This document shows positions 28,207 through 47,712 of a stretch of 64,000 bases of DNA, piece by piece. A program made the position numbers and the translations under genes. The notes beneath the pieces were generated by a model. That model searched no databases and was not told the DNA's origin. It was given only the letters and a program-made list of their open reading frames with translations. Source of the DNA: Candidatus Omnitrophota bacterium (GTDB lineage Bacteria; Omnitrophota; Gorgyraeia; Zapsychrales; JANLHA01); assembly GCA_038222225.1 (NCBI GenBank), contig JBBRHV010000007.1, forward strand, positions 27 through 64,026. Direction: 5' to 3'. Numbering within the stretch: position 1 is the stretch's first letter; each line of letters opens with the position of its first letter.

Positions 28207-29223
28207 TTATTCCTCGTATACCCCAAACGCGCAGACCCGATTGCGGCCGAGCTTTTTGGCCCGGTACAATGCCCAGTCGGATTTATCGATCAATTCAGCC
28301 ATTTTCCTGCCGTCATTGGGAAATGCAGTTGAGCCAACGCTTACGGTCACATGAATATCCTTGTCATAGGCATGAATCATACGGACCTCAACCGCAGCTC
28401 GCACACGTTCGGCAACATAATGAGCCCCTTCACGGTTGGTGTCCGGTAAAATCACCGAAAATTCCTCCCCGCCGAAACGCCCCACAATATCGATTTCGCG
28501 CACGGTTTCCTTAATGACCTTCGCCACCTCTCTCAACACATGGTCCCCGGCCAAATGCCCATAATTGTCGTTGATACCTTTAAAATGATCAATATCCAGC
28601 ATTAAAAACGCCAGATTGACATTCTTGGCCTTGGCGCGGTTCATTTCCTCGGCAAACCGGTCCATCAAATAACGCCGGGTAAACACTTGTGTTAAGCCGT
28701 CGGTGATCGCGAGCCGTTCGATTTCCTTGTACAAATGAATGCGTCGAAGGGCAAGGGCGAACTGATTGGTCAAGATCTCAATCGTATCTTTCTCCTCCTC
28801 CCGTCCTCCCTTAATGGCCAAATATCCCAGAAGCTCCTTCTTCCCCTTAACCGGAAAAATAAAATGATCCGAGGCCTTCTTCAGGGCGGCCAATTCATTG
28901 GATAACGGGCTCAGCAGAAGACAATACTCATATTGGGCCTGATCACGCAGCCGCTGCTGAAAAATTTGAAAGGCCTCATCATCATCAGATGTTTTTGTGA
29001 TCTCTTTGGTGATGTCATAAAGCGTATAGACTCTGCTGACCTTGTCCTCCAGTTCCTGCCTTTCTTTCAGAATACTGTCTTCCTGCAGGATATATTTCTG
29101 AAAATGCTCCTTGGCTTTTAAAACCTCCAGTTCGGAGTCTTCCCGGCGGAGAATGACATAGTAGCCCATCGCAACGGCTGTTGCCACGCAGTACAGCAAA
29201 AGTAAAATACCGGCCACGATCAT
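28207..29223 (-). CDS. Membrane-anchored coiled-coil GGDEF diguanylate cyclase (GGEEF active site, RxxD I-site present).
   Basis: The motif REIDIVGRFGGEEF is present. The N-terminus is hydrophobic. Confidence 0.85.
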   Translation of the reverse strand: MIVAGILLLLYCVATAVAMGYYVILRREDSELEVLKAKEHFQKYILQEDSILKERQELEDKVSRVYTLYDITKEITKTSDDDEAFQIFQQRLRDQAQYEYCLLLSPLSNELAALKKASDHFIFPVKGKKELLGYLAIKGGREEEKDTIEILTNQFALALRRIHLYKEIERLAITDGLTQVFTRRYLMDRFAEEMNRAKAKNVNLAFLMLDIDHFKGINDNYGHLAGDHVLREVAKVIKETVREIDIVGRFGGEEFSVILPDTNREGAHYVAERVRAAVEVRMIHAYDKDIHVTVSVGSTAFPNDGRKMAELIDKSDWALYRAKKLGRNRVCAFGVYEE

Positions 29224-29241
29224 AACGCTCCCTTTTCCCCT

Positions 29242-30537
29242 TTAAGAAGCACAGACACGGTTACGCCCTTCCTGTTTGGCCCGATACAAAGCCCGATCAG
29301 CCGCCTCAATGAGCTGCTCCCGCAAAATTCCATCTTGAGGCAAGGAGGCGACGCCGATCGAAACAGTGATCTGCGCCATTTGCCGACGGAGATAAAATGT
29401 CTGTTCCGCCGCTTTCTCCCGGAACTTTTCCGCCAACTGCGCCGCTCGCTCCTTGGAACAGTCCGGCAAAAATATGGCAAACTCCTCCCCGCCGTAACGG
29501 CAAATCAGACTGCCCGGGATATTGAACATCTCCATCAACAGCAGGCTGACGCTTTTTAAAACGATATCTCCGGCCATATGCCCGAACTGATCATTGTGTT
29601 TTTTAAAATAATCCAGATCCACCATGATAAAGGACAACTCTTTCTTCTGCCGGATCTCACGGTTGATTTCATAAGCCAGCCGCTGCAGAAAGTGACGGCG
29701 CAAATACAGTTCCGTTAAACTGTCGCGAATGGCAAGTTCTTCGATTTTTTCATAAAGCTGCGCGTTCTCAATGGCGACCGCTCCCAGATCACCGACCGTC
29801 GACAAGAGGCGGATATTTTCTGTCTGGAAATAATTTTCAACCGGGGTGTCAATGCGGAGAATGCCGATCGCCTTATTGCCGATCATCATCGGAACGCTCA
29901 TCAGCGAACAGATCGCCCGATCATCTTCCACTTTGATTTTTTCCGCATCAAAACGGAAATCACACGCAATATCCTCGATCAATAACGGCTGCATGTTCTT
30001 GGCGACCCACTGATCGTAGACATCCCCCTTTTTGGCTTTTATGTTCACTTCGATCTGCCCCCTATGAGAGGCAGAAATCCCCAGCTCGCCGGTCTTCGAG
30101 TGAAAAATATAGAGAATGACGGTCAAATCTTTATGCCCGAAAAGCTTGCTGACTTCGGTCGATAAAATATGGGAGGTTTCGGAGAGAGAAAAACTTTGAT
30201 TTAATTTCTCAGCAAGCGTCTTAAGTTCAAAATAATCGACGAGCTTTTTTCGCGCGGATTTCAGCGCGATCCATTGCCGCTCGATCTGGGACTCCAGCAG
30301 ATTGGCTTTCTCTTGAAAATCCTGACGCTTGAGTTCGGTTTCGGCGCGCAGCCAGACTAGACGGAAATGCAGATAAACAAAAACAATCAATAAAAATAAG
30401 CACGCCAAACATAAGGGAAGAAGAAAAGAAGGCTCTGAGAAACGGACATAAAAACAAAACCCGGCTAAGGGAAGACTCAAAACAAATCCCAAAGCCCGCC
30501 GGGAATTAAATAATTGTCTGGTCTGTATCTTTATCAA
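29242..30537 (-). CDS. Membrane-anchored GAF-GGDEF diguanylate cyclase (GGEEF; no I-site).
   Basis: A GAF-like segment (GILRIDTPVENYF...AVAIENAQLYE) is present, and the motif RYGGEEF. It overlaps the next gene by 32 nt. Confidence 0.8.
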   Translation of the reverse strand: MIKIQTRQLFNSRRALGFVLSLPLAGFCFYVRFSEPSFLLPLCLACLFLLIVFVYLHFRLVWLRAETELKRQDFQEKANLLESQIERQWIALKSARKKLVDYFELKTLAEKLNQSFSLSETSHILSTEVSKLFGHKDLTVILYIFHSKTGELGISASHRGQIEVNIKAKKGDVYDQWVAKNMQPLLIEDIACDFRFDAEKIKVEDDRAICSLMSVPMMIGNKAIGILRIDTPVENYFQTENIRLLSTVGDLGAVAIENAQLYEKIEELAIRDSLTELYLRRHFLQRLAYEINREIRQKKELSFIMVDLDYFKKHNDQFGHMAGDIVLKSVSLLLMEMFNIPGSLICRYGGEEFAIFLPDCSKERAAQLAEKFREKAAEQTFYLRRQMAQITVSIGVASLPQDGILREQLIEAADRALYRAKQEGRNRVCAS

Positions 30538-37598: not shown

Positions 37599-38258
37599 TT
37601 ATTCCTGAACCGAGCCTTCTTCCGGCTCAACTGAATTTTGATCAAGCTCCGCGCTGTTTCCTGATTCATCCGGAGAAACATTCACGACAACGCCCACTTT
37701 AGCCGTCCGCAGAACTCTGTCTCCGATCCGATAGCCTTTTTGCAGCTCCTGAATCACCATTCCATTTTCCTGCTCTTGACTGGGAGTCTGCATCAAAATC
37801 TCATGCATATGCGGATCAAACATCTTTCCGACTGCTTCAATCGGTTCAGCGCCCTGTTTTTTGAGCAGCGCATAGACCCTTTTCATCACCATCTCTACGC
37901 CGTGAATAAAGGAATCATAGTCCTGATGTTTCGCGCGGGCCGTTTCAACGGAACGCTCCAGGTCGTCAAGAACATACAAAAATTCGCTGATCAAACCTTC
38001 ATTGGCATACTTGACGAATTCCATTCTGTCCCGCTCATTGCGTTTGCGGACATTCTCAAACTCTGCCAAAATTCTCAAGTATTTATCTTTGCTGTCCTTT
38101 GCCTGCTCCTGAAGGGCTTGATACTCAGACAGCCTCACTTCGATGGTTGTATCCGGTTCTGACGCCGCAGACTCTACCGGCGCCTTTTCCTCACCACAGC
38201 AGCAAGGATCATTCTTCTGCCCTTTACAATGTTCTTTCTTGCTCATAAACGACCTCAT
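37599..38258 (-). CDS. grpE: Nucleotide exchange factor GrpE.
   Basis: The GrpE C-terminal motif GYRIGDRVLRTAKVGV is present. Confidence 0.9.
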   Translation of the reverse strand: MRSFMSKKEHCKGQKNDPCCCGEEKAPVESAASEPDTTIEVRLSEYQALQEQAKDSKDKYLRILAEFENVRKRNERDRMEFVKYANEGLISEFLYVLDDLERSVETARAKHQDYDSFIHGVEMVMKRVYALLKKQGAEPIEAVGKMFDPHMHEILMQTPSQEQENGMVIQELQKGYRIGDRVLRTAKVGVVVNVSPDESGNSAELDQNSVEPEEGSVQE

Positions 38259-38989
38259 AGTTCATTCATCAAATTTGATAAATACCCCAAGGTGGAAACC
38301 ACTTTTTCATAATTCATTCTGGAAGGACCTAGAACCGCCAAACGGCCAGTCCGTCCGTCATGCAGAGAATACTGTGAAATCGCCACCGCGCATTCACTCA
38401 TTTCCTTACAGGCAAGTTCCTGCCCGATAAAAACCTGAACCCGCTTTTGCAATTCACAATTGATCAGCAAGATCAGCTGTTCTTTCTCCTCAAGAACCGA
38501 CAAAATACTACGAATTTTTTGAATGTCTTGATAATCGGGATATTCCACGACAAAACGCCGCCCGCTGCAGAAAACCAAATCATGACTTCCATCCACGCTT
38601 ACGATGCTCGTATACTGAGTCAAATCCGAGATCATCTGTGTCGTTTTTTCCAGCATCCGTTCAAGATTCCGGGTTTCTTCCTCATATTCTTTTTTTATAG
38701 TTTCCTTCTGCTCTTCCAGCAGGGAAATTTCATTCATGATGTTATCCACATAAAAACGATACCCGTCCTGTGTCGGCAACCGGCCAGCGGACGTGTGCGG
38801 ATGAGTCAAAAACCCCTCAACTTCAAGCTCCGCGAGAATATTACGGATCGTGGCCGGACTCACATCTAGAAAATAACTCTTGGCAATATAAGACGAACTC
38901 ACTGGAGTCGCAGCACGGATGTATTCATTGACCACAATGCCCAAGACCCGCTCTTTGCGTTCTTGATAGATCGATTGCTTTGTTGTCAT
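38255..38989 (-). CDS. hrcA: Heat-inducible transcription repressor HrcA.
   Basis: The HrcA N-terminus ERKERVLGIVVNEYIRAATPVSSSYIA is present. The start is taken at MTTKQS, downstream of an AGGAG RBS. Confidence 0.85.
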   Translation of the reverse strand: MTTKQSIYQERKERVLGIVVNEYIRAATPVSSSYIAKSYFLDVSPATIRNILAELEVEGFLTHPHTSAGRLPTQDGYRFYVDNIMNEISLLEEQKETIKKEYEEETRNLERMLEKTTQMISDLTQYTSIVSVDGSHDLVFCSGRRFVVEYPDYQDIQKIRSILSVLEEKEQLILLINCELQKRVQVFIGQELACKEMSECAVAISQYSLHDGRTGRLAVLGPSRMNYEKVVSTLGYLSNLMNEL

Positions 38990-39042
38990 ACCCCCCCAAC
39001 TCCTCTTAAATATTTCGCCCCTGACGTTTCTTTTGAAAATTT

Positions 39043-39069
39043 TAGCACTCAAATAATGAGATTGCTAAA
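39043..39069. promoter_or_regulatory. CIRCE operator (TTAGCACTC-N9-GATTGCTAA) for HrcA.
   Basis: It matches the consensus TTAGCACTC-N9-GAGTGCTAA with one mismatch. It lies 7 bp downstream of the -10 box and 54 bp upstream of the hrcA start. Confidence 0.8.
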
Positions 39070-39075
39070 GCGCTA

Positions 39076-39103
39076 TTATAACAAAAAAGTTCTGCTTGTC
39101 AAT
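39076..39103 (-). promoter_or_regulatory. Consensus sigma-A promoter of the hrcA-grpE-dnaK-dnaJ operon (TTGACA-N16-TATAAT).
   Basis: The minus strand carries -35 TTGACA (39103-39098), a 16-nt spacer, and -10 TATAAT (39081-39076). It lies immediately upstream of the CIRCE site. Confidence 0.6.
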
Positions 39104-39157
39104 CTCTGACAGGCGGGCTCTATCAAAAACATAACCTACTCAAATTAAATGGGTTAA

Positions 39158-39844
39158 CTATTTCTGGTCTTCTTTGAGGCGAGACACACAAGCACTCACG
39201 ATCAGCATATCTTCCAAAAAATTTTCGATCAAAGGCACATTATTGCGTAAATCTGAAATAGACGGATTCAGATCTCCTGGCGGATAAAAACGCAAAAAAA
39301 TGATTCCATCAACAATTTCCAAAGACAAAGAGGGCTTGCCCCGCTGATCCCGATTTTTATACTTCCCGAAAATACGAGCTACCGCCTCATCTGCGAAAAG
39401 CCGACTTGCCAGATCCGGCATATTAGAGAATGCACTAAACTCTTTCAGACTTGCCGGAAGCTGAACTATGCTGGCCCGCCAACTGTCCTCTTCATGCGCG
39501 ACATCTCCAAATGCCGGCGAATTAGAACGGATTTGAGTGCGCAGGCGCTCAGTAATACTCAATGTCAAATCAAGCGGAGTTTGAAGCTTGAGATACCCTC
39601 GATACTGCGCCTTATCTGAAATTTTATCCTCAATATCTTCATAGCTGAATTGCTGATGCCGATATTCAAATTCCAAACAATAACAATTCGGACGCGCCTC
39701 GATCTGTGAGATCTTTGCATCCAAAAGCTTGACCAAGGCCTCCAGATGCCTTTTTCGCTGATCTTTGTTGGTCAAAAAATCACTGCTTAAAAATGCGATT
39801 CCTCCAACACACGCCAAAACAATCATAATAATAATAGGACTCAT
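39158..39844 (-). CDS. Hypothetical membrane-anchored protein located between clpB and hrcA.
   Basis: An N-terminal TM helix (MSPIIIMIVLACVGGIAFL) and a GGGAG RBS are present. No recognisable domain was found. Confidence 0.5.
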   Translation of the reverse strand: MSPIIIMIVLACVGGIAFLSSDFLTNKDQRKRHLEALVKLLDAKISQIEARPNCYCLEFEYRHQQFSYEDIEDKISDKAQYRGYLKLQTPLDLTLSITERLRTQIRSNSPAFGDVAHEEDSWRASIVQLPASLKEFSAFSNMPDLASRLFADEAVARIFGKYKNRDQRGKPSLSLEIVDGIIFLRFYPPGDLNPSISDLRNNVPLIENFLEDMLIVSACVSRLKEDQK

Positions 39845-39956
39845 AATTTCTCCCTATTGTAACCGATGTGCCAAAAGTATAACCCCATTTTTAAATTTTT
39901 AAAAGAGTTTTTTACAAATCCTTTTTGTCAAAGAACGATTTTTCCCTTCCTCCCGA

Positions 39957-42530
39957 TTAAACAGAAACCAGTTCCAAGCCTGCCTTGCCACAACTGACCG
40001 AAACCCGCTGATGATCCTGAATCGCGCCCTTTAACAATGCCAGGGCAATTCTGTCTTGCACGTTTTTTTGAATAACGCGCTTCAGCGGACGGGCTCCATA
40101 AGCCGGGTCAAATCCATGTTCCACCAGCCATTCCTTTGCCGCCGGCAAAACCTCTAGCTCAATATGACGGCCCTTCAAACGTTCCTGCACTTCTGCCAGC
40201 TGAATATCCACAATGTGAATGAGATCTGTTTTCTGAAGACGGTTGAAAATGATCGTTTCATCCACACGATTCAGAAACTCCGGACGAAAACAGCCCTTCA
40301 ATGAATCCTGAATATGCTTATGGATCTGCGCACGGTCTTCCAAATTCGCGATCTCTTCAGAGCCAATATTGGATGTCATAATAATGATCGTGTTTTTAAA
40401 ATTCACAATGCGCCCCTGACCGTCGGTCAGGCGCCCGTCATCCAGGATCTGCAAAAGAACATTGAAGACATCCGGATGCGCTTTCTCGATTTCATCCAAA
40501 AGGACGACTGAATACGGCCGACGGCGAACCGCCTCGGTCAACTGCCCGCCTTCATCATACCCGACATATCCCGGCGGCGCCCCTATTAAGCGCGATACAG
40601 AATGTTTCTCCATGTATTCGGTCATATCGATCCGCACCATGGCCTCCGAATCATCAAACAGAAACCATGCCAGCGAGCGAGCCAACTCCGTCTTCCCCAC
40701 ACCCGTTGGGCCGACAAAAATAAACGAACCAATCGGGCGCTTGGGATCACTTAAACCTGTGCGAGACCGGCGGATACTGGCTGAAACCAATTCAATGGCC
40801 TCCTCTTGCCCGACAACCTTAGACCGCAGGCCTTCTTCAATATGGATCAGTTTTTCCGTTTCGCCTTCCATCAATTTTGAAAGCGGGATTTTTGTCCACT
40901 TCGAAACGATCTGCGCAATATCCTCCTCATCCACTTCTTCCTTTAAAAGTGAACCCGCCTGCTGAATCCGCAGAAGCTTTTCATTCTGAGCCTTCATTTG
41001 TTTCTCTAATTCGATCAGCTTTCCGTAACGGATTTCCGCCACGCGGCCCAATTCGCCCTGTTTTTCAAATTGAGCAGCCTTATGCTTAAGCTCTTCCTCC
41101 TCAGCCTTAATCTTTTGAATCCGCTCAATGACATCCTTCTCTCCCTGCCATCGCAAGCGTAACGCCTGATAACCTTCTTTTAACTGAACCACCTCAGCAT
41201 CCAGCTTTTCCAGACGCTCCTTGGACGCGGCGTCTTTTTCTTTCTTTAATGCTTGTCGCTCAATCTCCAATTGCCGTATCCGGCGTTCAGCGGCATCTAA
41301 TTCCTGCGGCATAGAGTCAATTTCAATCCTCAAGCGGGAAGCCGCCTCGTCGATCAAATCAATGGCCTTATCCGGCAAAAACCGTTCCGTAATATAACGG
41401 TCCGACATGGTGGCCGCAGCGATCAACGCCGCGTCCTGTATGCGCACTCCATGATGCACCTCATAACGCTCTTTAAGCCCGCGCAAAATAGCGATCGTAT
41501 CCTCCACGCTGGGCTGGCTCACAATGACCGGCTGAAACCTTCGTTCCAAAGCCGCATCTTTTTCAATATACTGACGGTATTCATCCAGAGTAGTCGCGCC
41601 GATACAACGCAAGAGCCCCCGGGCCAAAGCCGGTTTCAAAAGATTGCCCGCATCGATGGCGCCGTCCGCTTTCCCGGTTCCGACGATGGTATGCAATTCA
41701 TCAATGAAAAGAACAATCTCTCCATCCTTGGATTCCACCTCTTTCAAAACAGCCTTCAGCCGCTCTTCAAATTCTCCCCGGAATTTAGCCCCGGCAATCA
41801 GCGCGCCCATATCAAGGACCATTAATTTCTTGTTCTTCAATCCTTCCGGCACATCCCCTTCAAAAATGCGCTGGGCCAGCCCTTCCACAATGGCGGTTTT
41901 TCCGACGCCAGGCTCACCGATCAGCACCGGATTATTTTTTGTCCGCCGGGAAAGAACTTGGATCAGCCGGCGTATTTCCTCATCCCGACCGATCACAGGA
42001 TCCAATTTTCCCTGGCTGGCAAGTTCCGTGAGATCACGGGCATATTTTTCAAGCGCCTGATATCTCTCTTCGGAATTCTGATCTGTGACTTTTTGTCCGC
42101 CGCGAACACCCTTAAGGATCGAAAGGATATCGTTCTCCCGAATGCCGTGTCTGCGCAAAAATTGCGACACCGCATTGGACTCTTCCTTAAACAGCGCCAG
42201 CAGCACGTGCTCCTGAGTGACATACTCATCCTGCATGCGGCTGGCCTGATTTTGCGCCTCCAGTAACACGCCGTTCAAGCGCTGTGATAAAAAAGGCGCC
42301 GTCCCTTCCACTTTCGGCCGACGGGAAATCTCTTCCTGGCATATCCGTTGAACTTCAGCAAGATCAACTCCCAAACGGGACAAGATCGTCGCCGCCACGC
42401 CCTTGGGTTCTTGCAAAAAGGCTATCATCAGATGCTCGATGTCGACCTGCTGCTGACTGTGTCCTTGAGCGATCTGGATCGCCTGCTGAAGACTTTCCTG
42501 ACTTTTCATTGTGAACTTATCAAATTGCAT
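39957..42530 (-). CDS. clpB: Chaperone disaggregase ClpB.
   Basis: A Clp N-domain, two AAA+ modules ([16 protein letters not shown]) and a long coiled-coil M-domain are present. Confidence 0.95.
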
Positions 42531-42569
42531 AACGGGTCCTTATTACGCGGTTTAATGATCAACGGTTTT

Positions 42570-42596
42570 CTGGCACTCTAGCCACTCGAGTGCCAA
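42570..42596. promoter_or_regulatory. CIRCE-like inverted repeat (CTGGCACTC-N9-GAGTGCCAA) upstream of clpB.
   Basis: The core GCACTC-N9-GAGTGC is identical to CIRCE. It lies 40 bp upstream of the clpB start. Confidence 0.6.
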
Positions 42597-42614
42597 ATCA
42601 CATCCAAAAAATTT

Positions 42615-42893
42615 TTACCCCTTGTCTTCTATCGTCAAAATAATCTTAATTCCGCTCAAATTCACTCTCTTTTCACCCATCAAATAATGAACATAATTTA
42701 AAACCTTAATCTGTTCCTTCGAATAACACCGGGTACATTTGCCAATCCGTTTCGGTGAAACAATGCCCATATCATCCAGTTTCCGCAACGTCCAAATCGG
42801 AATATCCACGATGCGACTCACAACCCCGATAATAAAAACCGGTTCATTTGGGTCCAGCTCAATATCAAATTGTTCAACATCAAAGTCTTCCAT
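42615..42893 (-). CDS. MerR-family HTH regulator, HspR-like.
   Basis: PVFIIGVVSRIVDIPIWTLRKLDDMGIVSPKR ... VNLSGIKIIL resembles HspR (VNLAGVKRIL). The start is taken at Met 42893 with an AGGAG RBS 7 nt upstream. Confidence 0.65.
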   Translation of the reverse strand: MEDFDVEQFDIELDPNEPVFIIGVVSRIVDIPIWTLRKLDDMGIVSPKRIGKCTRCYSKEQIKVLNYVHYLMGEKRVNLSGIKIILTIEDKG

Positions 42894-43142
42894 AAGCAAT
42901 CTCCTGAGCTCACTAGAAATATAACACAAGCTAACTATAATGTCAAGGTTATCTACCAAAAATATTTAGATAAGCTAACTATTAGACATTTGCGCCCCGC
43001 GTTCCTTACATTCTTTTAAGCCATCTCGCCCGCCTCCTTCTTAAGCGCTGCCTTCTCTAAAATAATAACGACAAGTCACGGAATGCATTCCCGAATATTT
43101 ATATTGATAAAATCTTATATTCAGATATAACTAAGATAAATA

Positions 43143-44297
43143 TTGCCGTTTAAAACTATGAATCAATCAAACCCCCAACTCAGCATTATCTTGCCCTGCC
43201 TCAATGAAGAATCTGGCCTGAAGTCTTCTTTAGACCATATTCTCACGGTCATTGAACGGCACCGGCTCTCGGTAGAAATCCTTGTTGTCGACAACGGCTC
43301 AACCGATAACAGCCGCGCGATCGCAAAACAATTCCCCTCGGTTAAACTTCTGGAGGAAAGCGAACGCGGATACGGGGCCGCCTGCCGGGCCGGCCTCAAA
43401 GCATCCGGCGGAACATTTTTACTGATTGCTGACTGTGACGGAAGTTATGATTTTGACCACCTCCCCCTCTTTCTCGACAACCTCTCTCAAGGATATGATT
43501 TTGTCATCGGCAACCGTTTTGCCGGCCACATGCATAAAAACGCCATGCCCTGGGCTCATCGCTACATCGGAAACCCCATCCTGTCCGGACTGCTGCGGCT
43601 TTTTTTTCGCTCCTCAATTCAGGACTCTCACTGCGGACTGCGCGGCATCACGCGTACGGCGCTTGACCGTCTTAATCTGCGTACCGTCGGCATGGAATTC
43701 GCCTCTGAAATGGTAATCAAAGCTGAAAAACTAAAATTAAAAATCGCCCAAGTCCCGGTGAATTACAATCAACGCTTAGGCCGTTCCAAGCTGAAATCAC
43801 TGAGTGACGGTTGGCGCCATTTGCGTTTTATGCTCCTCTACAGCCCGCTTTTTCTTTTTTTTCTGCCCGGAGCAGGAATGTTCTGTATCGGCATACTGGG
43901 ATTTTTCTTAAGTTATTTTGAGCTTATTCAAATCGGCACTATCCGTTTTCAAGAACACCCCCTTTTTGTCTTTGCCCTTTTCATCATCATTGGTTATCAG
44001 CTGATCATTTTTTCTCTCTTTGCAAAAACATATGCTATCACCCACTTTGATGAACCCCCCATTTTTGAAAAATTTTATCATTATATCACCATTGAACACG
44101 TCGGGATTTTTGGGATTCTTTTTACCGTATTCGGCGCCGGAATTTATTGGGGAATTCTTCAGAAATGGCTCCATATGCATTTCGGCCCTCTGAATGAAAT
44201 TAAAAATGCGATTCTCGCGCTGCTGCTCATGACCGTCGGGATGCAGACCCTGTTTTCATCCTTTATGCTCAGCATCTTGGGGATTAAAGAAAAATGA
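43143..44297 (+). CDS. Polyprenyl-phosphate sugar synthase, GT2 (GtrB/ArnC/DPM1-like) with C-terminal TM helices.
   Basis: LSIILPCLNEE, VVDNGSTD and IADCDGS (DxD) are present, with 3-4 C-terminal TM segments. Confidence 0.8.
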   Translation: MPFKTMNQSNPQLSIILPCLNEESGLKSSLDHILTVIERHRLSVEILVVDNGSTDNSRAIAKQFPSVKLLEESERGYGAACRAGLKASGGTFLLIADCDGSYDFDHLPLFLDNLSQGYDFVIGNRFAGHMHKNAMPWAHRYIGNPILSGLLRLFFRSSIQDSHCGLRGITRTALDRLNLRTVGMEFASEMVIKAEKLKLKIAQVPVNYNQRLGRSKLKSLSDGWRHLRFMLLYSPLFLFFLPGAGMFCIGILGFFLSYFELIQIGTIRFQEHPLFVFALFIIIGYQLIIFSLFAKTYAITHFDEPPIFEKFYHYITIEHVGIFGILFTVFGAGIYWGILQKWLHMHFGPLNEIKNAILALLLMTVGMQTLFSSFMLSILGIKEK

Positions 44298-44319
44298 CAT
44301 TTTATACATCGGCCTCTTT

Positions 44320-45408
44320 ATGAACATCGCGATCTTTCATAATTTCATGGATAATATCGGCGGGGCAGAAATCGTCACGCTGATCCTGTCCCGAGAGCTC
44401 CAAGCCGATATCTACACGACCACTATTGATCGCGACAAAATCCGCAAGATGGGATTTTCCTCTGACAACATTTACTCCATCGGAAACGTCCCGATCAATG
44501 CCCCGTTCCGTCAGCAAATCGCTCTCTGGCATTTTCGCCGTCTCAACCTGACAAACTGCTATGATTTTTTTATTATTGCCGGCGATTGGGCGATGTCTGC
44601 GGCCGTTCACAATAAACCCAATCTCTGGTACGTCCATTCTCCGATTCGGGAGATCTGGGACCTCTGCGCCTATATACGGAAAAACTTGGTCCATCCTTTC
44701 AAGCGTCCCCTGTTTGACCTGTGGGCGTCCTATAACCGAACCCTCAATCGATCCTATGTCCGTCATGTCGATCAATTGGCCTGCAACTCGCATAATACCG
44801 CTGCCCGCGTCAAAAAATATCTTAACCGCGAGGCAAAAGTCATCCACCCCCCCGTTGAGACAAAACGCTACCAATGTCTTGCGCCTGAAAACTATTGGCT
44901 TTCCGTCAACCGCCTCATTGGCCATAAACGCGTCAACCTCCAGATGGACGCCTTTCGAAAACTACCGGATGAAAAACTCATCATTGTCGGAAGTTACGAA
45001 CAATCCCAGCATTTCCGATCTTATGCCGAAATGATACAGGCGCAAAAACCCGAAAATGTCACGGTCACCAGCTGGGTTGATTCTGACGAGCTGATCCGGC
45101 TCTATGCTCACTGCAAGGGCTTTATCGCCACCGCCGCCGATGAAGACTTCGGAATGACACTCGTTGAAGCCATGGCGTCAGGCAAGCCGGTGATCGCAGC
45201 CAACGAAGGCGGGTACCGTGAAACCGTGACACCGCAAACAGGCGTTCTGATCGATTCGATCGATGCCGGACAATTGGCCTCGGAAATTCAAAAAATGAAC
45301 GTCCTACTTAAAAAAGACCCCCATCATTATCAGCAGGCCTGTTTGGCTCAGACGAAAAAATTTGATACCAGTGAATTTATAAACAAGATCGGAAGTTTGC
45401 TGCCTTGA
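44320..45408 (+). CDS. Glycosyltransferase family 4 (GT-B fold).
   Basis: The C-terminal motif EDFGMTLVEAMASGKPVIA (the EX7E region) is present. Confidence 0.75.
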   Translation: MNIAIFHNFMDNIGGAEIVTLILSRELQADIYTTTIDRDKIRKMGFSSDNIYSIGNVPINAPFRQQIALWHFRRLNLTNCYDFFIIAGDWAMSAAVHNKPNLWYVHSPIREIWDLCAYIRKNLVHPFKRPLFDLWASYNRTLNRSYVRHVDQLACNSHNTAARVKKYLNREAKVIHPPVETKRYQCLAPENYWLSVNRLIGHKRVNLQMDAFRKLPDEKLIIVGSYEQSQHFRSYAEMIQAQKPENVTVTSWVDSDELIRLYAHCKGFIATAADEDFGMTLVEAMASGKPVIAANEGGYRETVTPQTGVLIDSIDAGQLASEIQKMNVLLKKDPHHYQQACLAQTKKFDTSEFINKIGSLLP

Positions 45409-45486
45409 GCGCTGTCTGCTGTGATGATACGAAGAAACAGTCGACTCGCGTGACCTGTTTTACAAATGCATCCCGCACGCGTTTTT

Positions 45487-47712
45487 TCATGGAACGTCTG
45501 GAGTTTTCTCTAAATTGTTGATGCGTTCAGCGCTGACCGGAGCCCCCAACTGCTGCGCCTTCAAGACGTCTTCAGAGGCGCTGGAATTATTCCCGAGAAT
45601 CTCATAACAGATCGCGCGTTGCAGATAGACATCAGCACGTCGAGGTTCCAAATTTAAAATATGAGTAAAATCAGCAATCGCGTTTTCGCATTGCCCTTGG
45701 GTCCTATAAATCAGGCCTCGATTAAGATACGCCTCCGGAGTCCCCTCTAGCTCGATCGCCCTGGTATAACTTTCAATAGCCTCCGTCCATTTCTCAAACG
45801 ACGCAAAAAGATTCCCGCGATTATAATACAAAAGGGCAAACTGTGGATTCAGTTGAATGGCATACGAAAAATCCGACAACGCCAAATCATACTGCCTTGT
45901 CGCGTTATATAACGTGGCGCGATTATTATATGCCTCAACGAGATCGGGCTTTACCTCGATAGCCTTTGAATAATAAACGATCGCCTCATCATAACGTCCC
46001 TCTTCTTTGTAAGCATTCGCAAGATTATTACAGATCTCTGCCCGCGGTCCTCCCGAATCCAACGCGGTCTTATACGCCTCTCTGGCCTCTTCATATCGCC
46101 GCTGAGCCTTCAGCGCATTTCCTTTTCCAAAATAGGCCAAGGCATAATGCGGCTGAAGATTCGCCGCCTTATTATAAAATTGCTCCGCAAGGTGAAACTG
46201 ACGCTCTTCAAAATATAAGTTGCCCCAGTTGTAGTAGGTCGGCCCATACTGGCTGTTTAATTTTCTCGCCATATGATAATCCAAATAGGCCTTGGGATGG
46301 TCTTTTAACGCCCTATAGACATTCGCCCGATTTAAAATGGCCAACGAATTTTGCGGACTGATCTCAACTGCCCGATTCAAAACCTCCAATGCTCGCTCGT
46401 ATTCCTTTTGATCATAATACGCCATGCCTAAATTAATATAAGGCCGGTCTTTCAAAGGCGACTTTTGCACCGCATCTTCCCACAATGACACAGGGCTCCG
46501 CCAAACCGCATTACGCTGATAAGCCAGCCATGACAAAACACCGATCACAACAGCGCTTAACGCAATCAAATATTTTTTGTCCGTGCAGACATTCCCGAGC
46601 CCCACAACCCCGAATATGATAAGCCCGACTGACGGCAAATAAAGCCGATGCTCAAAAATGACATCCAGCAAAGGAATAAAGCTGGATTCAACCGCAATCG
46701 TAATAAAAAACCAGACGATCCCAAACGAGAGCAAACGGTTCTTTTTAAATAAACCGATGGCCATGATCCATAACATGACCAAAGCCAAAAAACTCAGTGC
46801 CGTCGGGATTTCAAACAAACTATGCGATAAAGGATAATCATAATCCAGATTCTGGTGAACCGGCAGGATCATCAACCGAAGATAGGTCATCAGCACTCGA
46901 AACTGCGTTAGCAAATAACTCTTCCACCCCGGCCCCCGGCCGATAAGCTGCATTTCAGAAATTTGCTGAATGCTTTGCGGATAAACCGCATACGCCAATG
47001 CGATTACGGCTGCCACCGCCGTCATTCCGAGCATCAATCCTTTTCTGTTCAGCTTCGGCTGAAAATAGACCTCAAGCAATAACAGCATCACCGGAAGCGT
47101 AACAATATTTTCTTTTGTGAAATATCCCAGAATGCCGCAAAGCAAAATTCCAAACATATAAAACGCCTTACGGACTTGGCCGATCTGGTCTTTTTGAATG
47201 CGCACCTTCCAATATAGACAAACGGCCAACATATAAAAGAATGTCACCATTGCTGCCAGACGTTGAGAGATAAACGTGACCGCTTGCGTTTGAACCGGAT
47301 GGACCAAAAAAAGAGCGGCTGCCAAAAAAGCAACCATCTCTTTGTTCTGCCTCCAGCGTCCGTTCTGACAGGCCGAAGACTGCGGGCAAGACAACAGCAA
47401 TAACATAAACCAATAGACCAAAAACACGTTGAAAAGGTGGATGCAGAAATTCACAACATGATATCCCAGCACAGCCTCGCCGCCCATGGCATAACTCAAA
47501 GCAAAGGATAAGAACCCCACCCATCGTTTTGCCGTGTTGGGATCTTGCCATAACTCCTGAACGGTCTTCAGGCTCTTTACAACATAATTGTCATTGATAT
47601 AAATTTGATCATCAAACTGAAAAGGAACCTGAAATGTATTTGAATACACCGCAAAACCTAAACCGCACAAAAGCAAGAGACCCAAGATCTGTGAATGTAT
47701 TTTAAATTTCAT
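45487..47712 (-). CDS. Polytopic GT-C-fold membrane protein with a C-terminal TPR array (TMTC/PMT-like, DUF1736-type candidate polyprenyl-P-sugar-dependent glycosyltransferase).
   Basis: About 11 predicted TM helices, an FDDQIYINDN acidic motif in the first loop, and at least 8 TPR repeats (AYYNRGN..., AYFGKGN...) are present. Confidence 0.7.
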   Translation of the reverse strand: MKFKIHSQILGLLLLCGLGFAVYSNTFQVPFQFDDQIYINDNYVVKSLKTVQELWQDPNTAKRWVGFLSFALSYAMGGEAVLGYHVVNFCIHLFNVFLVYWFMLLLLSCPQSSACQNGRWRQNKEMVAFLAAALFLVHPVQTQAVTFISQRLAAMVTFFYMLAVCLYWKVRIQKDQIGQVRKAFYMFGILLCGILGYFTKENIVTLPVMLLLLEVYFQPKLNRKGLMLGMTAVAAVIALAYAVYPQSIQQISEMQLIGRGPGWKSYLLTQFRVLMTYLRLMILPVHQNLDYDYPLSHSLFEIPTALSFLALVMLWIMAIGLFKKNRLLSFGIVWFFITIAVESSFIPLLDVIFEHRLYLPSVGLIIFGVVGLGNVCTDKKYLIALSAVVIGVLSWLAYQRNAVWRSPVSLWEDAVQKSPLKDRPYINLGMAYYDQKEYERALEVLNRAVEISPQNSLAILNRANVYRALKDHPKAYLDYHMARKLNSQYGPTYYNWGNLYFEERQFHLAEQFYNKAANLQPHYALAYFGKGNALKAQRRYEEAREAYKTALDSGGPRAEICNNLANAYKEEGRYDEAIVYYSKAIEVKPDLVEAYNNRATLYNATRQYDLALSDFSYAIQLNPQFALLYYNRGNLFASFEKWTEAIESYTRAIELEGTPEAYLNRGLIYRTQGQCENAIADFTHILNLEPRRADVYLQRAICYEILGNNSSASEDVLKAQQLGAPVSAERINNLEKTPDVP

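Follow-up and report, generated by a model that had tools for sequence, protein, structure and literature searches.

The animal proteins TMTC1-4 (CAZy GT105) are endoplasmic reticulum (ER) O-mannosyltransferases of cadherins and protocadherins, and they consist of a GT-C domain with 11 transmembrane (TM) helices followed by an array of tetratricopeptide repeats (TPRs) on the non-cytoplasmic side of the membrane. A gene for a protein of this build was found in a stretch of 64,000 nucleotides from Candidatus Omnitrophota bacterium (GenBank assembly GCA_038222225.1, contig JBBRHV010000007.1, positions 27 to 64,026 of the forward strand), which as a whole is referred to below as the window. The gene lies convergently to two glycosyltransferase genes, a GT2 and a GT4, and these three long open reading frames (ORFs) occupy window positions 43143-47712, with the coordinates that had been stated beforehand in a reading of the letters alone (the original prediction). 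In this study the three genes were analysed computationally and are proposed to form an extracytoplasmic glycosylation module with proteins as the acceptors, a reading to which a probability of about 0.5 is given.

As of 2021 the transferase activity of the TMTCs themselves had not been directly demonstrated, and prokaryotic homologues of the TMTCs were mentioned in passing (PMC7801869). No solved TMTC structure was found in the PDB searches made here. The pilin O-arabinofuranosyltransferase TfpW of Pseudomonas aeruginosa has been characterised. It spans the membrane with 11 TM helices and carries its TPRs in a periplasmic domain; a DDX motif in loop 1 is essential, periplasmic loop 4 (PL4) contains YX6PFX7P, and the donor of the enzyme, polyprenyl-phosphate D-arabinofuranose (D-Araf), is made by neighbouring genes. 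Compared by description, TfpW and the window protein have the same 11 TM helices, TPRs and DD(X) in loop 1 (D34-D35 in the window protein, which has Y277-x6-P284-x9-P294 in loop 4). The two differ in that tfpW lies directly downstream of pilA whereas no pilin gene is adjacent here, and in that D-Araf comes from DprE1/E2-type genes and not from a GT2. A full-text literature search returned, besides TfpW, no paper characterising a bacterial member of the TMTC-like family; the statement in the original prediction that bacterial TMTC-like systems are essentially uncharacterised was slightly overstated, since TfpW, of the same architecture by description, is characterised.

The kind of system, a lipid-phosphate-sugar synthase together with a GT-C transferase, is already known. 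Actinobacterial Ppm1 with PMT (GT39), and the fungal and animal PMT/POMT enzymes, follow the same logic of a polyprenyl-phosphate-mannose synthase and an 11-TM GT-C enzyme acting on secreted proteins, and the PMTs differ from the window protein by a MIR beta-trefoil in a loop and by the lack of a C-terminal TPR array. In GtrA/B/C, ArnC/ArnT, GacI/GacL, CsbB/YfhO, GtrB+PgtC2 and Pgf, a GT2 polyprenyl-phosphate synthase is likewise paired with an extracytoplasmic GT-C enzyme; in these three-component systems, unlike here, the GT-C enzyme comes from other families (GtrC, ArnT, YfhO, PgfM) and has no TPRs, a small GtrA-type flippase is usual, and the GT2 has two TM helices instead of four. Streptococcal GtrB+PgtC2 O-glucosylate proteins, and both GtrB+PgtC2 and Pgf act on Ser/Thr-rich protein regions. 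Among the archaeal dolichol-phosphate (Dol-P) pathways, the 4-TM Dol-P-mannose synthase (DPMS) of Pyrococcus furiosus (PfDPMS) is the closest solved relative of the window GT2 and Haloferax AglJ its best curated match, although the scores lie under the equivalog cut-offs and the host here is a bacterium. AglD, a lipid-phosphate-mannose synthase, and AglS, a GT-C enzyme, add a sugar outside the cell.

Results

Relationship of the window protein to the TMTCs

The TMTC-like gene (45487..47712, minus strand) encodes 741 residues. Residues 1-419 (46456..47712, minus strand) were assigned to an N-terminal 11-TM GT-C domain by an AlphaFold2 (AF2) model, by Foldseek and by hhalign against the TMTC N-domain, and residues 420-741 (45490..46455, minus strand) to a C-terminal TPR array by Pfam TPR_1 (3.2e-57; 8 significant stretches at about residues 420-725, with room for ~9 repeats in 420-741). 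The AF2 model of residues 1-419 reached a pLDDT of 88.9 and a pTM of 0.91, and its helices fit 11 TM segments. The predicted cytoplasmic loops contain 6 Lys or Arg per 33 residues versus 10 per 144 in the outer loops; because the number of TM helices is odd and the charge bias is positive-inside, the protein is predicted to be N-in/C-out with the TPR array in the periplasm. The original prediction of a convergent GT-C protein with about 11 TM helices, an FDD motif (F33-D34-D35) and at least 8 TPRs was thus recovered in full.

Meaningful matches of the GT-C model in the PDB by Foldseek were all GT-C enzymes (ArnT, STT3, Pmt4, PglB and Emb), with probabilities of 0.8-1.0 and weak E-values; ArnT was the top match (E=1.5e-3), and the TM-score with Pmt4 (9i5k) was 0.52. 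No sequence match to residues 1-419 was obtained in Pfam, NCBIfam or the PDB, whether the query was the sequence itself or a profile of 38 sequences. The relationship to the TMTCs surfaced only once the published alignment of TMTC1-4 N-domains (12 animal sequences, supplement of PMC7801869) was compared by hhalign and hmmsearch. The alignment of 38 bacterial N-domains (A2) matched the 12 animal N-domains by hhalign with a probability of 100 and E=7e-40 over 378 columns at 21% identity (query 7-403, template 3-432). With single-sequence templates the E-values were 1.3e-22, 1e-20 and 6e-19 for human TMTC3, fly TMTC1 and fly TMTC4, respectively, and the hidden Markov model of the bacterial family scored 104-148 bits by hmmsearch against all 12 TMTCs. 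By the same treatment ArnT (5EZM), Pmt1 (6P25) and PglB (5OGL) gave a probability of 0.2 each, that is, no match. On these profile comparisons the 741-residue protein is to be classed as a genuine, divergent bacterial relative of the TMTCs, and as neither an ArnT nor a PMT.

Two other identities were tried and rejected. For PMT/POMT (GT39) there was no Pfam PMT, PMT_2 or MIR match, and the likeness to these enzymes is at the fold level only, so that of the "TMTC/PMT-like architecture" given in the original prediction the TMTC part stands and the PMT part does not at the sequence level. The other is ArnT (GT83), by which the GT-C protein together with an ArnC-like GT2 would serve lipid A modification and resistance to cationic peptides. 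The top Foldseek rank of ArnT and the presence of ArnC among the best matches of the GT2 speak for such a role, and it is nonetheless extremely improbable: there is no sequence relationship to ArnT, the family profile finding no sequence at all in the PDB while it matches the TMTCs strongly, ArnT is without a TPR domain, no arnA, arnB, arnD, arnE or arnF gene lies nearby, and the ArnC NCBIfam score of the GT2 is 44.6 bits against a cut-off of 529. The ArnT outcome, named in advance as one of two that would overturn the original prediction, did not occur.

The TMTC motifs were taken as the seven (M1-M7) defined in PMC7801869, where M4 makes phosphate and metal contacts in TMTC models and M2 makes proposed mannose contacts. 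Conservation was read from A2 and from a set of 58 homologues (A1). D34-D35 in the first periplasmic loop (47608..47613, minus strand), corresponding to the M1 'DD' that is the catalytic/metal site of GT-C enzymes, aligned to FV(F/Y)DD of the TMTCs; D34 was invariant in 58/58 and 38/38 homologues and D35 was at least 90% conserved. K200-E201-N-I-V-T205 in external loop (EL) 3 (47098..47115, minus strand) was in register with 'KE(T/Q)GIT' of the TMTCs, corresponding to M4 KE(T/Q)xxT, and K200, E201 and T205 were each at least 90% conserved in A2. D292-Y293 in EL4 (46834..46839, minus strand), inside Y277-x6-P284-x9-P294, aligned to the M5 'DW'; the Asp was invariant and the Trp was replaced by Tyr. 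In E354-H-R356-L-Y358 of EL5 (46639..46653, minus strand), the counterpart of M7 ERxxY, the Glu and the Tyr were in register and invariant in both alignments, and the Arg, which is fully conserved in A1 and to at least 90% in A2, was displaced by one residue (356 instead of 355). The flank '(V/L)LYxPSxG' of this motif matches 'RVLYxPSMG' of the TMTCs. Of M3 RxD the Arg alone (R151) is kept and the Asp is gone. Further blocks common to both families are (Y/F)HxxNxxxH, LLF(A/V)xHPxxT(E/Q)AV, LYxPSxG, FxxDD, RP/R..LN(Y), xR and RN.

The GT2 and the GT4

The GT2 gene (43143..44297, plus strand) encodes 384 residues when read as the longest ORF from TTG 43143; the start in public gene calls is ATG 43158, giving 379 residues, and this is the probable true start. 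The protein matched Pfam GT2 with E=1.8e-26, and the Pfam family GT2_TM_C (PF26629) is listed (precomputed) for the gene. Its best curated NCBIfam matches were AglJ (1.3e-39), Dol-P-hexose transferase (5e-26), PpgS (1.7e-18) and ArnC (9.4e-12), all of which are lipid-phosphate sugar synthases. The respective scores of 136, 91, 67 and 45 bits are far under the equivalog cut-offs of 325, 375, 370 and 529, so that no curated subfamily, and hence no sugar, can be assigned from them. Among solved structures the best sequence matches were PfDPMS (5mlz, 3.9e-15), ArnC (9.4e-10) and GtrB (2e-5), and the alignment to ArnC runs through residues 12-294, into the membrane region.

A DXD motif, D97-C98-D99 in the 384-residue numbering (43431..43439, plus strand), aligned to the catalytic region of PfDPMS; its two Asp residues, D93 and D95 in the numbering of the GT2 homologue alignment (A3), were invariant in 44 homologues. 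The C-terminal membrane domain, at about residues 229-381 (43827..44285, plus strand), contains four hydrophobic helices by hydropathy (229-265, 271-297, 314-339 and 355-381) and by AF2 (231-254, 268-298, 313-340 and 349-377 in A3 numbering). The AF2 model, built on the 44 homologues, had a pLDDT of 86.1. The best 19 Foldseek matches of the model in the PDB were all polyprenyl-phosphate glycosyltransferases (DPMS, ArnC and GtrB), and its fold aligned over the full length, 375 columns, with the 4-TM PfDPMS. The GT2 thus has the GT-A domain with DXD, the interface helices and the C-terminal TM helices of a polyprenyl-phosphate glycosyltransferase, and by its sequence matches and predicted fold it is such an enzyme, closest to the DPMS/AglJ type with four TM helices rather than to the GtrB type with two. 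The fold and the C-terminal anchoring given in the original prediction therefore hold, and the GtrB-like helix number does not; the second outcome that would have overturned the prediction, a GT2 without membrane topology of this kind, did not occur either. The GT2_TM_C family is highly conserved (53-76% identity) and is common to Omnitrophota, Patescibacteria, Ratteibacteria and the DPANN and Bathyarchaeia archaea, the identity with the archaeal members being 53-61%.

The GT4 gene (44320..45408, plus strand) encodes 362 residues, begins 22 bp past the GT2 stop and is probably co-transcribed with the GT2. Its identity as a GT4, already given in the original prediction, was borne out by Pfam Glycos_transf_1 (5.1e-27) and Glyco_transf_4 (1.5e-8) and by the PDB entry 2f9f 'WbaZ-1 mannosyltransferase' (E=4.7e-42); it is a standard GT-B enzyme without a membrane segment. 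The E-values for the assignments of the three ORFs are far beyond chance. In five other loci (L083-L087), GT2_TM_C genes have an orthologue of the GT4 (494-620 bits) at a distance of 1 bp to 2 kb. The GT4 is a conserved partner of the GT2, and its part may be to lengthen the lipid-linked sugar or to make an acceptor.

A somewhat different pathway would be one in which the AglJ-like GT2 starts and the GT4 extends a short lipid-linked oligosaccharide in the cytoplasm, and the TMTC-like protein transfers it en bloc or polymerises it after flipping. In its favour, AglJ, which scores best against the GT2 in NCBIfam, begins the Haloferax N-glycan by loading the first hexose onto Dol-P; the GT4 is linked to the GT2 in all lineages examined, as would suit two enzymes that work in turn on the same lipid carrier; and TfpW has been proposed as both a glycosyltransferase and an oligosaccharyltransferase/polymerase, with archaeal Dol-P glycosylation being alike. 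This pathway is judged quite unlikely, as the AglJ score is far under its cut-off, the closest solved relatives of the GT2 (DPMS, ArnC and GtrB) all make monosaccharide donors, and the TMTCs add single mannoses (PMC11292533).

Linkage of the three genes across genomes

In relatives with 74% GT2 or 84% HflX identity, the same order of clpB, hsp20, merR, GT2, GT4, the convergent TMTC-like gene, hflX and miaA was found. In two other lineages of Omnitrophota (L086/L091, 53-55% GT2 identity), an operon running from the TMTC-like gene through a GT4 orthologue (494 bits) to a second GT2 gene (GT2b) is convergent on the GT2_TM_C gene. In a further locus (L085), genes for a methyltransferase, GT2b, UDP-galactopyranose mutase and DUF707 come after the GT2-GT4 pair. 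Upstream of the pair, in divergent orientation (5068-6713, minus strand), the TMTC-like gene appears split into two pieces, an N-terminal one of 146 residues that matches the family profile with E=4.7e-28 and a TPR one of 207 residues; it is either a pseudogene or an assembly or frameshift artefact. In L094 (67% HflX identity; 3602-4489, compared with window 37599-42959) the block of the TMTC-like, GT4, GT2, hspR and clpB genes is missing between hflX and a 223/228-residue protein with hrcA-grpE-dnaK-dnaJ. The trio has therefore been gained or lost as one block in Omnitrophota, and the three gene orders together with the presence or absence of the block are a signature of functional coupling.

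The neighbourhood was also evaluated over 78 unrelated loci of the TMTC-like family, among which 11 polyprenyl-phosphate-type GT2 genes were found within 10 kb, 6 of them within 1.5 kb (permutation P=0.0245). The best curated match of all 11 was AglJ, PpgS or Dol-P-hexose transferase, and many also matched ArnC or PgfS. A twelfth GT2 (L072), PgfS/ArnC-like and just beyond the E-value cut-off, lies 4 bp from a TMTC-like gene. The look-ups centred on GT2 and HflX are more telling as linkage evidence than the proximity statistic from the 78 loci. It is likely that the donor used by the neighbouring GT-C enzyme is a product of the GT2.

Size, spread and tandem arrays of the TMTC-like family

An exhaustive scan returned, as clusters at 50% identity, 46,837 members at E<=1e-3, 24,275 at E<=1e-10 and 5,984 at E<=1e-30, and more than 4,000 homologues were present among 8,000 candidates scored. 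The family was found mainly in Omnitrophota, Nitrospirota, Thermodesulfovibrionia, Bacteroidales, Planctomycetes and Desulfobacterota, and Geomonas paludis Red736 is a cultured carrier. Despite the ~24,000 clusters at E<=1e-10, no Pfam model covers the membrane domain of ~410 residues. The public names that members bear at present ('TPR repeat protein', 'PilW', 'PilF', 'TadD') derive from the TPR part only and are misleading; one JGI entry reads 'protein O-mannosyl-transferase'.

Head-to-tail tandem arrays were observed in L004, L011, L064, L027 and L030; the largest has ten paralogues in 21 kb, nine of them complete (L004, JAJDCA010000018.1, Omnitrophota OFTM38, 1-21233), L011 has six, and a metagenome-assembled genome of Bacteroidales has four. 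In the array of ten the catalytic domains are 49-69% identical, whereas the TPR tails vary from 169 to 422 residues and are 32-50% identical. Diversification of the tails with a steady catalytic domain fits acceptor-specific paralogues. Compared with animal TMTC1-4, for which a lipid-phosphate-sugar donor is likewise expected, the window protein is bacterial and predicted to face the periplasm rather than the ER lumen, has a donor-synthase gene alongside, and belongs to a family with tandem arrays of up to ten.

Surroundings of the locus

The claim that the GT2 and GT4 are the sole plus-strand genes was correct: they are the only credible ones in the window, in which all other long ORFs belong to the minus strand and the GC skew stays negative from end to end. 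The GT4 and TMTC-like genes are separated by a 78-bp spacer (45409..45486) read from the sequence, in which no terminator-like hairpin was found by a consensus scan, and a scan for terminators and promoters across the region gave nothing decisive overall. On one side the trio is flanked by hrcA-grpE-dnaK-dnaJ, a 228-residue protein of no assigned family, clpB and an HspR-like MerR regulator, and on the other by hflX, miaA, a DUF3106 protein, an anti-sigma factor and an ECF sigma factor. With HrcA and the HspR-like MerR the window contains both heat-shock repressors, and the glycosylation genes sit inside this chaperone neighbourhood. The HflX protein has 84% identity to one labelled Candidatus Omnitrophota, and its other named relatives, with a single exception, are assigned to this phylum too. 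Two adjoining GGDEF genes for diguanylate cyclases, of which one also encodes a GAF domain, are located at 28207-30537 (minus strand), upstream of an ABC ATPase gene.

At the window start, 38 kb from the locus, an ORF of at least 2,255 residues (2-6766, minus strand) that runs off the window encodes FG-GAP and RHS repeats, a TcdB-like region and at least 6 fibronectin type III (fn3) domains, with local Ser/Thr contents of up to 42% in a 40-residue window. The giant fn3/FG-GAP/RHS protein, the one notable candidate from the search for acceptors, may be located at the cell surface; speculatively, it would be a beta-sandwich acceptor like those that the TMTCs glycosylate. In another member of Omnitrophota (L086/L087, 1-6753, minus strand), the GT2_TM_C gene adjoins genes for a 1,200-residue autotransporter with PATR repeats and for a protein of more than 2,126 residues with Ig-like/HYR and glycoside-hydrolase matches, which add to the large surface proteins encoded near the module.

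Discussion

Findings that weigh against the module and other explanations of the locus

Several findings weigh against a three-gene module of protein glycosylation and are gathered here. At this locus the TMTC-like gene is on the strand opposite to the GT2 and GT4 and starts 12 bp downstream of hflX-miaA, so it is not co-transcribed with them. About 85% of the 78 family loci have no polyprenyl-phosphate GT2 within 10 kb, the permutation P of 0.0245 is modest, and in a neighbour-joining tree the GT2-linked TMTC-like proteins fall in a clade of 29 of 112 that is not exclusive to them. Within ~10 kb of the trio no obvious Ser/Thr-rich secreted acceptor was found when such proteins were looked for nearby, as the original prediction had suggested; no pilin gene was found in the same range, and no flippase (GtrA, MATE or other) among the neighbours scanned, the small ORFs not having been scanned exhaustively. 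Of the TMTC motifs beyond the Trp and Arg changes noted above, M2 SHKSYRP has lost SHKSY and is reduced to R63 (the R of 'YRP') in the bacterial family, and both prolines of M6 PxxP (TM9) are absent. Pfam DUF1736 (PF08409), present in all animal TMTCs, was matched at E<=10 neither by the window protein nor by a single one of its 38 homologues.

The GT2-GT4 pair also occurs without a TMTC-like gene, at 53-59% identity, in Patescibacteria (L088/L089, 5607-12058) and in a DPANN archaeon (L090, 7001-14856), where it adjoins Wzm/Wzt-type ABC exporters and further glycosyltransferases in what looks like glycan-polymer synthesis. Two polytopic proteins without annotation, 465 and 608 residues long and with 10-11 hydrophobic segments, flank the pair in Patescibacteria; they were unrelated to the TMTC-like family by hhalign and might be other GT-C-type enzymes. 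Near the operon of L086/L091 there is an RgpF-like or CTP-transferase (CTP_transf_3) gene and a fused ABC exporter. These gene sets raise the possibility that the chemistry is as proposed and the acceptor is a glycan or lipid, such as an envelope polysaccharide, lipopolysaccharide or a lipid-linked polymer, to which side-chain sugars would be added in the periplasm, with the GT4 (and GT2b, RgpF and the ABC exporter elsewhere) building the polymer. The genes downstream of the GT2-GT4 pair in L085 fit the same picture, and three-component systems of glycan decoration are widespread, with GtrABC, ArnC/ArnT and streptococcal GacI/GacL as models. A glycan or lipid acceptor is a serious alternative, considered less likely than a protein acceptor. 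In the window no genes of polymer synthesis or export lie beside the trio, most family members are located outside polysaccharide clusters, and the diversification of TPR tails in tandem arrays is easier to explain by many protein acceptors. The characterised enzymes of GT-C+TPR architecture, TMTC and TfpW, act on proteins, and we know of no characterised glycan-decorating GT-C enzyme with a TPR array.

The absence of a TMTC-like gene beside the pair in other phyla also suits an explanation in which the adjacency has no meaning, the TMTC-like gene belonging to the hflX-miaA unit with a donor from elsewhere and the GT2 and GT4 serving an unrelated surface glycan or glycolipid. The 12-bp distance to hflX and the convergent orientation agree with it, as does the location of homologues of ~42% identity among unrelated housekeeping genes, and the family is so abundant in Omnitrophota, with its tandem arrays, that chance neighbours are to be expected. 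The chance of this being correct is small, for the trio stays together through three gene orders and through insertion or deletion of the block, the TMTC-like gene of L086/L091 shares an operon with a GT4 orthologue, and several subtypes of polyprenyl-phosphate GT2 stand directly beside family members in unrelated genomes.

Accordingly, of the periplasmic glycosylation kit in the original prediction, the grouping is upheld by the linkage of the trio in three arrangements and by the block absent from L094, while no flippase or acceptor turned up nearby and a protein acceptor is a proposal. Proteins are favoured as acceptors because both characterised GT-C+TPR architectures act on them, because most family members lie outside glycan clusters, because the TPR tails diverge in the ten-paralogue array and the catalytic domains do not, and because the two-enzyme logic of streptococcal GtrB+PgtC2 glycosylates bacterial proteins.

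Proposed mechanism

From the gene structures, the folds, the homology to TMTCs, the conserved motifs and the conserved neighbourhood, we infer the following donor, acceptor, chemistry and topology for the protein-glycosylating module. At the cytoplasmic face, the membrane-anchored GT2 would load polyprenyl phosphate with a sugar taken from a nucleotide sugar, as enzymes of its family do. The loss of the mannose-contact motif and the varied GT2 subtypes beside family members mean that the sugar should not be assumed to be mannose, and it may be another one. The lipid-linked sugar would then be flipped to the periplasmic face, where the TMTC-like GT-C enzyme would use it as a lipid-phosphate donor, with D34/D35, K200/E201, D292 and E354/R356 as the putative donor and metal site according to homology and motifs. 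The sugar would be passed to acceptors recruited by the periplasmic TPR array. By analogy with the animal TMTCs and P. aeruginosa TfpW, these are most likely proteins of the periplasm or outer membrane or secreted proteins, modified at Ser/Thr residues.

Significance for the family and its hosts

Three results are new. The first is that a huge bacterial family of TM+TPR proteins without a Pfam model is, by profile comparison, of TMTC type; the second is the recurrent linkage of this family to a 4-TM DPMS-type GT2 and a GT4; the third is its expansion into tandem arrays. Naming the family as GT-C glycosyltransferases would re-annotate thousands of genes. Human TMTCs are linked to disease, and a bacterial homologue with a neighbouring donor-synthase gene is a simpler system in which to reconstitute such an enzyme, solve its structure and search for its substrates; if protein O-glycosylation is true, the mechanism of the TMTCs could be studied there in a tractable model.

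Protein O-glycosylation from lipid-phosphate sugars is currently known in Actinobacteria, in streptococci and for the Pseudomonas pilin. Should the acceptors be proteins, its known range would come to include Omnitrophota, Nitrospirota, Bacteroidota, Planctomycetota and Desulfobacterota. A wider and still doubtful idea, offered tentatively, is that the TM+TPR proteins represent the TMTCs in bacteria and may even be the source from which the TMTCs evolved, and that they constitute a huge, so far unannotated system of diderm protein O-glycosylation in which the TPR arrays of the paralogues, up to ten to an array, select different domains of periplasmic or surface proteins as a 'glyco-code'. Were this true, the locus described here would be a tractable minimal set of donor synthase and transferase.

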